From: Candidatus Heimdallarchaeota archaeon B3_Heim
GTDB lineage: Archaea > Asgardarchaeota > Heimdallarchaeia > Hodarchaeales > Hodarchaeaceae
Assembly: GCA_003144275.1 (NCBI GenBank)
Contig: NJBF01000001.1
Span: forward strand, 150,001-182,000
Reading direction: 5' to 3'
DNA: 32,000 nucleotides
Below are positions 18,964 to 19,047 of this stretch, one piece after another. The translations under genes and the position numbers were made by a program. Position 1 is the first letter of the stretch. Each line of letters starts with the position of its first letter. The notes beneath the pieces were generated by a model. It did not search any database. It worked only from the letters and a program-made list of their open reading frames with translations, and was not told where the DNA came from.

Positions 18964-19047
18964 ATGATGAATACTGACCTATACTGATGATGGGTTCATA
19001 ATCGGACACCACTTGAACCTATTTATGATGTCCATGTACCTCACTGA
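18964..19047 (+). ncRNA. Box C/D guide RNA predicted to target both strands of SSU rRNA helix 34
   Basis: C ATGATGA 18964-70; D' guide ATACTGACCTATA; D' CTGA 18984-87; 10-bp internal stem; C' ATGATGT 19025-31; D guide CCATGTACCTCA; D CTGA 19044-47. Both guides match conserved archaeal 16S segments recalled from memory. Confidence 0.85.

Follow-up and report, generated by a model that had tools for sequence, protein, structure and literature searches.

One small RNA of an Asgard archaeon carries guides against both strands of helix 34 of 16S rRNA. The 84-nt element lies at positions 18964 to 19047 (plus strand) of the window, i.e., the whole 32,000-nt stretch of contig NJBF01000001.1 of Candidatus Heimdallarchaeota archaeon B3_Heim that was analyzed, and, judged by its sequence, it is a genuine small box C/D guide RNA gene. 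Very probably, the RNA directs 2'-O-methylation of G1142 and G986 of 16S rRNA; it probably also assists the folding of its target as a chaperone, and an internal loop may contribute accessory pairing. We infer these three activities; what we observed for the B3_Heim RNA is its anatomy, complementarity, conservation, and covariation. The element appears to be of a known kind, the double-guide C/D RNA, and at the same time a structural variant with a covarying stem and an invariant loop between boxes D' and C', and its predicted function as a methylation guide for helix 34 is well supported.

The origin of eukaryotic snoRNAs from archaeal sRNAs is an unsettled question, and, to our knowledge, few rRNA ribose methylations are traceable from archaea to eukaryotes. 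Here, in an Asgard lineage and in compact relatives from other Asgard and TACK lineages, a single RNA would address the pair of helix-34 nucleotides for which every eukaryote studied employs two snoRNAs, and the helix-34 double guide offers a concrete family in which vertical descent can be tested against convergence. The covarying stem and invariant loop resemble a design that has until now been reported for eukaryotic snoRNAs, and the B3_Heim stem-loop bears on whether accessory base-pairing already existed in archaea. Should the two sites be unmethylated or the loop inert, the element would be an ordinary, though well-conserved, guide RNA.

Anatomy of the RNA and its pairing with helix 34

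The preliminary description of this locus had reported clear C, D', C', and D boxes with two guides of 12-13 nt, and we confirmed all of them on the sequence. In 5' to 3' order on the plus strand, box C (ATGATGA, 18964-18970) is followed by the 13-nt D' guide (ATACTGACCTATA, 18971-18983), box D' (CTGA, 18984-18987), a hairpin made up of a 5' arm (GATGGGTTCA, 18989-18998), a loop (18999-19013), and a 3' arm (TGAACCTATT, 19014-19023), box C' (ATGATGT, 19025-19031), the 12-nt D guide (CCATGTACCTCA, 19032-19043), and box D (CTGA, 19044-19047). As in other archaeal box C/D sRNAs, boxes C and D are terminal, boxes D' and C' are internal, and the gaps that hold the guides are ~12 nt long. Described archaeal sRNAs are compact, with a length of about 50-70 nt, and in them D' and C' are joined by a short, unstructured spacer of few unpaired bases that forms a K-loop. 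The B3_Heim RNA departs from this compact form in its length of 84 nt and in a structured D'-C' spacer of 37 nt.

The gene lies just downstream of rpl10e (18254-18772), as had been stated, with the end of rpl10e 191 nt upstream of box C, and pth2 (19126-19503) starts 78 nt past the guide RNA. Immediately outside the boxes, CACC (18957-18960) and GGAG (19048-19051) could form a terminal stem, which is weak in B3_Heim (3 bp and one mismatch); in relatives, the flanks of the RNA covary (e.g., CUCC/GGAG, CC/GG, and AAGCU/AGCUU). According to the fold prediction, the same GGAG also opens a hairpin with a T run, GGAGA-TTT-TCTCC (19048-19060), that may be a termination signal or supply an alternative partner of GGAG. 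Pairing of GGAG with CACC in the terminal stem and with CTCC (19056-19060) in the hairpin are mutually exclusive, and both alternatives are kept in the five closest relatives, which are the only ones to retain GGAG...CTCC after box D.

Directly upstream of box C, the window contains a long imperfect inverted repeat, TGATCGTAAATCTACTAGC...GCTAGTTAAATTATAATCA (18910-18958). Located between rpl10e and the guide RNA, it could act in processing or termination; the weak score that Rfam gave it as a minus-strand microRNA precursor is surely spurious. Elsewhere in the window, there is a tRNA match of 103 nt (5028-5130, minus strand), long enough to accommodate an intron, and close to it a second, partial tRNA match (5346-5401, minus strand).

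Using the organism's own 16S gene (G000:C88:1616-3089, minus strand) as the reference, we aligned both guides and found that each pairs with one strand of helix 34 in the N+5 register, as the preliminary description had proposed. More specifically, the D' guide pairs with 16S positions 1139-1150 through 11 Watson-Crick pairs and one G-U pair (-16.4 kcal/mol), and the D guide pairs with positions 983-993 through 10 Watson-Crick pairs and one G-U pair (-18.0 kcal/mol). Under the N+5 rule, C18979 of the D' guide faces G1142 (E. coli 1197) and C19039 of the D guide faces G986 (E. coli 1051), both in Watson-Crick C-G pairs. The predicted E. coli numbering is confirmed by a published alignment, in which the targets of the D guide and the D' guide are columns G1027 and G1184, which align with E. 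coli C1051 and A1197, respectively (Dennis et al. 2015; PMC4644070, supplement). The two target segments are 156 nt apart in the primary sequence and pair together as one helix, i.e., helix 34.

For a random genomic 10-mer, the chance of pairing this well with 16S is P ~0.007 per guide. The G-U wobble of the D guide, at U19037 and thus two positions from the target, is fixed throughout the genus. We considered a second target as an explanation for it and rejected the idea: a relative's 23S offered no match of at least 9/10, and the perfect complement, GAGGTACATG, is present at 3 other places in the genome, versus ~7 expected by chance.

The strict C-guide-D'...C'-guide-D pattern is found at only 2 loci in the 3.9-Mb genome, and we estimated analytically that the chance of a strict four-box pattern is ~0.01. 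The second locus, outside the window (G000:C4:31575-31642), encodes an RNA of 68 nt whose D' guide pairs 10/10 with 16S, selecting position 466. Its D'-C' spacer of 23 nt contains a 7-bp hairpin, the loop of which, TTTTAC, has the same letters as a portion of the D' guide of this RNA.

Fibrillarin (C57:54997-55653) and Nop5 (C57:55870-56547) are encoded next to each other on one contig, and L7Ae is encoded on C91. In the mechanism that we propose, modeled on the well-established workings of archaeal C/D RNPs, L7Ae would bind at both kink-turns (C/D and C'/D') and be joined by Nop5 and fibrillarin to give the complete particle. The D' guide would then pair with the 3' strand of helix 34, so that fibrillarin could 2'-O-methylate G1142, and the D guide would pair with the 5' strand, where G986 would be methylated. 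Since the bound RNA would hold both strands of the future helix 34, it probably also helps the 3' major domain to fold in an orderly way. Such a chaperoning role had been suggested in the preliminary description; it has a published precedent in sR15 and sR17 of Nanoarchaeum equitans, and for the B3_Heim RNA it is a prediction.

It could even be argued that the RNA is mainly a folding chaperone or clamp for helix 34 and that methylation is absent or incidental. The guides do hold opposite strands of one helix, as proposed for the two N. equitans RNAs, the hairpin loop might supply a third contact, and the fixed G-U pair may ease release. However, the nucleotides at the N+5 positions form Watson-Crick G-C pairs, the guides have the canonical length of 12-13 nt, and none of the four boxes is disrupted, the spacing that matters for catalysis being kept as well. 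Methylation and chaperoning are, moreover, compatible, and we consider a chaperone with little or no guide function improbable. We favor an RNA that would guide methylation at both sites and probably chaperone helix 34 as well.

A metatranscriptome library yielded one contig, a close variant of the B3_Heim sequence, that spans 18954-19051 and continues into pth2. Its depth is low and DNA carry-over is possible, and it is a weak hint of transcription that does not imply a discrete small RNA. Reads from runs X19 and X20 gave no coverage of the guide RNA.

Conservation in the genus and the D'-C' hairpin

BLAST, a regular expression, and a covariance model agree in placing one copy of the guide RNA in 20 of the 21 genomes of the genus, always in the gene order histone - rpl10e - RNA - pth2 - pelota. 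The one genome without the RNA is 70% complete and has no rpl10e either, i.e., the whole locus is missing. While the flanking proteins fall to 55-80% identity, the guide cores stay unchanged: both the D' core ACTGACCTA and the D core CATGTACCTC are invariant (21 genomes). At its first base, the D guide is free to vary, as would be expected if only about 10 bp matter, and the guides are 12 and 12 nt long in most relatives and 13 and 12 nt long in B3_Heim. The genus is represented by four 16S genes, and these do not differ from one another at either target.

Boxes D' and C' are likewise invariant across the 21 genomes, and box C reads ATGATGA, GTGATGA, or GTGACGA. The last of these is seen only in the two most divergent genomes (G016 and G001), in both of which box D is CCGA; on its sequence, the combination replaces U.U of the kink-turn by C.C, with both partners changed together.

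Some side observations concern other genomes. In one relative, the 16S match (G007:C9:1695-3919) spans 2225 nt, compared with a model of 1478 positions, which points to an insert of ~750 nt, possibly an intron, in its 16S gene. Around rpl10e in the other families of the class, we found neither a C/D RNA nor pth2, and in one genus of the class (g8) the rpl10e open frame encodes 223-239 aa, versus 174 in the genus of B3_Heim, with a C-terminal tail of ~50-65 residues that is rich in acidic and lysine repeats.

The 37-nt spacer folds into a stem of 9-10 bp that brings D' and C' together, and both folding and covariation support its two arms. Across the genus, 92% of the cells of the 9 aligned pairs are paired, and 7 of the 9 pairs have changed on both sides. 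None of 500 shuffles reached this covariation score, and in slid controls the paired fraction dropped to 23-45%. Since D' and C' are joined by this covarying stem, C'/D' would be a stem-closed kink-turn rather than a K-loop. This may be a habit of the lineage, as the other strict four-box RNA (C4:31575-31642) also has a D'-C' stem (7 bp). A Snu13-like L7Ae, unable to bind K-loops, was considered as the cause of the stem-closed C'/D' and discarded; the B3_Heim protein is of the archaeal type, its best matches being archaeal L7Ae structures (E about 1e-37 versus 1e-21 for human 15.5K).

Within the loop, the motif GGACACC (19004-19010) stands out, as GGACAC is invariant and the final C is kept in 20 of 21 genomes. 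This heptamer is complementary to positions 1016-1022 of the organism's own 16S (GGUGUCC), 22 nt 3' of the D-guide duplex, in an orientation that would allow it to prolong that duplex in antiparallel fashion after a gap. We think it most likely that the loop contributes accessory pairing with 16S 1016-1022, a short distance 3' of the D target.

Alternatively, the hairpin might be purely architectural, serving as the closing stem of the C'/D' kink-turn, or be a protein-binding site, and its loop would then remain unpaired with rRNA; we give this slightly less than an even chance. It accords with the D'-C' stem of the C4 RNA, whose loop is unrelated, and with the one genome that has GGACACA. Besides the 16S site, the target of the heptamer also occurs at three sites in the 23S of relative G001, which makes four rRNA places in all. 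Including the loop flanks, the complementarity extends over 7-11 nt without consistently favoring any rRNA site as the loop partner. On the other hand, an architectural role leaves the invariance of the 7-nt motif unexplained while the stem and the loop flanks drift. A complement this near the guide targets is also uncommon by chance, since only 3 of 210 composition-matched 7-mer permutations of GGACACC have one within 40 nt of either target, and in two relatives the complementarity to 16S reaches 11 nt.

Further targets of the guides or of the loop are possible, as most of the organism's own 23S is missing from the assembly. All that the assembly contains are two separate 23S 3' ends (model positions 2721-2973; C65:12431-12734 and 3498-3825), both carried by the same 15-kb contig. 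The relatives G007 and G001 have two stand-alone 23S 3' pieces each.

Double guides in other archaea and the relation to eukaryotic snoRNAs

No genome outside the genus had the long form of the RNA, in a covariance-model search of 83 genomes of the class and in 400 of the phylum. The first exact double pattern that we used was too strict and missed compact relatives. A looser search for the guide to site 1197 uncovered double guides of the compact type in another two families of this phylum, and a scan of 185,579 species' genomes yielded 13 records in which the two helix-34 guides stand in the B3_Heim order. According to their titles, which are the depositors' own labels, these records belong to Odin-, Baldr-, and Njordarchaeota, Thermofilales, Thermoproteales, Nitrososphaerales, Nitrosopumilales, Nitrososphaerota, a "Crenarchaeota" MAG, and two contigs of one uncultured archaeon. 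The sequence of the "Crenarchaeota" record is identical to that of G296, a genome of the Asgard phylum, and the genus of B3_Heim shares its phylum with the MAGs titled Odin-, Baldr-, and Njordarchaeota.

With the Njord type (ACGTGCACCACT-CTGA), the 5'-strand nucleotide selected is that of the B3_Heim RNA, and the Odin, Baldr, Thermofilales, and ammonia-oxidizer types select the neighboring G, column 1026. In the Njord-type genome G296, 16S GGUGGUGCACGG is paired by guide CGTGCACCAC through 10 Watson-Crick pairs and one G-U pair; the counterpart in B3_Heim is 16S GAGGUGCAUG with guide CATGTACCTC. Both target differences between the two organisms are matched in the guide, i.e., guide and target covary.

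The reverse order of the guides occurred in 0 of 201 Asgard genomes, the same set in which the forward order was recovered. The compact homologues have no common gene neighborhood and no synteny with rpl10e, pth2, or pelota, and in most other families of the class we found no such helix-34 guide. Collectively, these sequences indicate that the helix-34 double guide is widespread in Asgard and TACK lineages. The search for Asgard and TACK homologs that the preliminary description had called for thus turned up double guides in several lineages and, in doing so, lowered the uniqueness of the B3_Heim RNA. Given the broad, fixed-order occurrence in Asgard and TACK, an old double guide is plausible; given the patchiness, the register shifts, and the missing synteny, convergence is equally open.

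In eukaryotes, helix 34 is methylated at yeast Gm1271/human Gm1328 (guided by snR40/U32A) and at yeast Gm1428/human Gm1490 (guided by snR56/U25). Both sites are conserved in plants, Entamoeba, and Trypanosoma, and Gm1428 also in Plasmodium; for Pyrococcus abyssi, neither helix-34 site is listed. The acetylated cytidine ac4C1280 is located 9 nt 3' of Gm1271. In the 16S of B3_Heim, the nucleotide 9 nt 3' of G986 is the second C of GGCC, a position homologous to ac4C1280, which is consistent with equivalence of G986 to Gm1271. From the 18S sequence as we presume it to be, G986 and G1142 match yeast G1271 and G1428 to the nucleotide. We also take CATGCACCGCTCTGA to be the D guide of U32 with its box D, in the same register as the D guide of B3_Heim, and P198 is presumably Rpl13a, the host gene of U32. 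The string CATGCACCGCTCTGA is found in a paper on the mouse P198 gene. The equivalence to the eukaryotic sites is very probably exact to the nucleotide, a conclusion that draws on the presumed 18S sequence, the ac4C1280 offset, and the U32 string. The earlier claim that the RNA targets the eukaryotic methylation sites in helix 34 has accordingly held up against the sites given by papers, the nucleotide level being partly our assumption.

Searching all 4227 Rfam families over the locus gave nothing at gathering thresholds and, with E values up to 10, weak generic C/D matches of 10-20 bits. No snoRNA family matched the locus at significance, and SNORD25, SNORD32/snR40, and snR56 were absent from the Rfam listing. 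When the SNORD25 model (RF00054) was run against the whole genome, it returned 13 weak hits without C/D anatomy, and the guide-RNA locus was not among them.

The preliminary description had read the mirrored guide register as a sign of ancestry. This argument does not hold: the N+5 rule, applied to a conserved rRNA, forces the register, and since rRNA and rule together dictate both guide sequence and register, their sameness is not evidence of common descent. The broader suggestion of an ancestral dual-guide form gains from the same-order double guides in Asgard and TACK and loses from the failure of every Rfam snoRNA model to recognize the locus. Descent of the eukaryotic snoRNAs from a helix-34 double guide is, in our view, possible but unproven, the latter because no Rfam snoRNA model, SNORD25 included, recognizes the locus.

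For the link to eukaryotes, we put the chance of convergence at about even. Helix 34, near the decoding site, may have been chosen repeatedly, with guides arising independently in archaea and eukaryotes. In addition to the dictated guide sequence and register and the Rfam results, several observations fit such a history: the targeted 5'-strand G differs by lineage (column 1026 or 1027), most other families of the class are without such a guide, homologues of different lineages share no gene neighborhood, and published work emphasizes hotspots and rapid guide turnover. Against it stand the same guide pair in the same order in several Asgard and TACK lineages, the lack of any reversed pair in the 201 Asgard genomes, and the conservation of both sites across eukaryotes. 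The most far-reaching combination would be that a double guide clamped helix 34 in the Asgard-TACK ancestor and was the direct ancestor of the Gm1428 and Gm1271 snoRNAs, and that the genus later gained a D'-C' stem-loop in the eukaryotic style, with an invariant loop that serves as a third antisense element against 16S 1016-1022. We regard this joint scenario as unlikely; if the loop did act as a third antisense element, it would be the first archaeal case of the "extra base-pairing" of snoRNAs.

Comparison with known guide RNAs

In N. equitans, sR17 (helix 28) and sR15 (helix 30) have D and D' guides for both strands of one 16S helix and have been proposed to methylate both strands and to chaperone helix formation (PMC4644070). 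Like them, the B3_Heim RNA has guides that pair with distant strands of one helix of the 3' major domain. Unlike these compact RNAs, it targets helix 34, is 84 nt long, and has a structured D'-C' spacer of 37 nt, and both of its target sites coincide with pan-eukaryotic methylation sites. Other archaeal sRNAs reach the same region: sR32 of Pyrobaculum calidifontis targets alignment positions G1184 and C1205, and sR6 of Sulfolobus acidocaldarius and sR49 of P. calidifontis target G1026 (PMC4644070). The first shares its G1184 target with the D' guide of B3_Heim, and the other two act on the G that adjoins the D-guide target. The catalogue of seven species contains no sRNA that combines guides to the two helix-34 strands, and none that targets column G1027 (PMC4644070).

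The compact Asgard and TACK double guides, of which we found no description in the literature examined, have the same order as the B3_Heim RNA, with the D' guide directed to the 3' strand and the D guide to the 5' strand. Within this set, the Njord-type RNA selects exactly the two nucleotides selected in B3_Heim, with covariation between guide and target. Unlike the 37-nt spacer of B3_Heim, the D'-C' spacers of the compact RNAs are 3-19 nt long and contain no hairpin, and several of these RNAs select G1026 rather than G1027.

With respect to the hairpin, the D'-C' stem-loop of yeast snR70-type snoRNAs carries a conserved element with complementarity to rRNA close to the methylated nucleotide (van Nues et al. 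2011; PMC3116282). Such "extra base-pairing" in yeast and human snoRNAs lies mostly between D' and C', and snR40 and snR56 are among the snoRNAs listed with flanking complementarity (PMC3116282). The B3_Heim RNA is predicted to resemble snR70 in having a conserved D'-C' loop complementary to rRNA near a methylation target. It differs in that the complementary site is 22 nt from the guide duplex, rather than immediately adjacent, and in that 7 nt are invariant and other rRNA matches exist.

Finally, SNORD25/snR56 and SNORD32A/snR40 form RNPs of the same kind as the B3_Heim RNA, and their helix-34 nucleotides are the predicted equivalents of its targets. Eukaryotes employ two separate snoRNAs for these sites, with U32A and snR40 also guiding others, whereas in B3_Heim one RNA would serve both.
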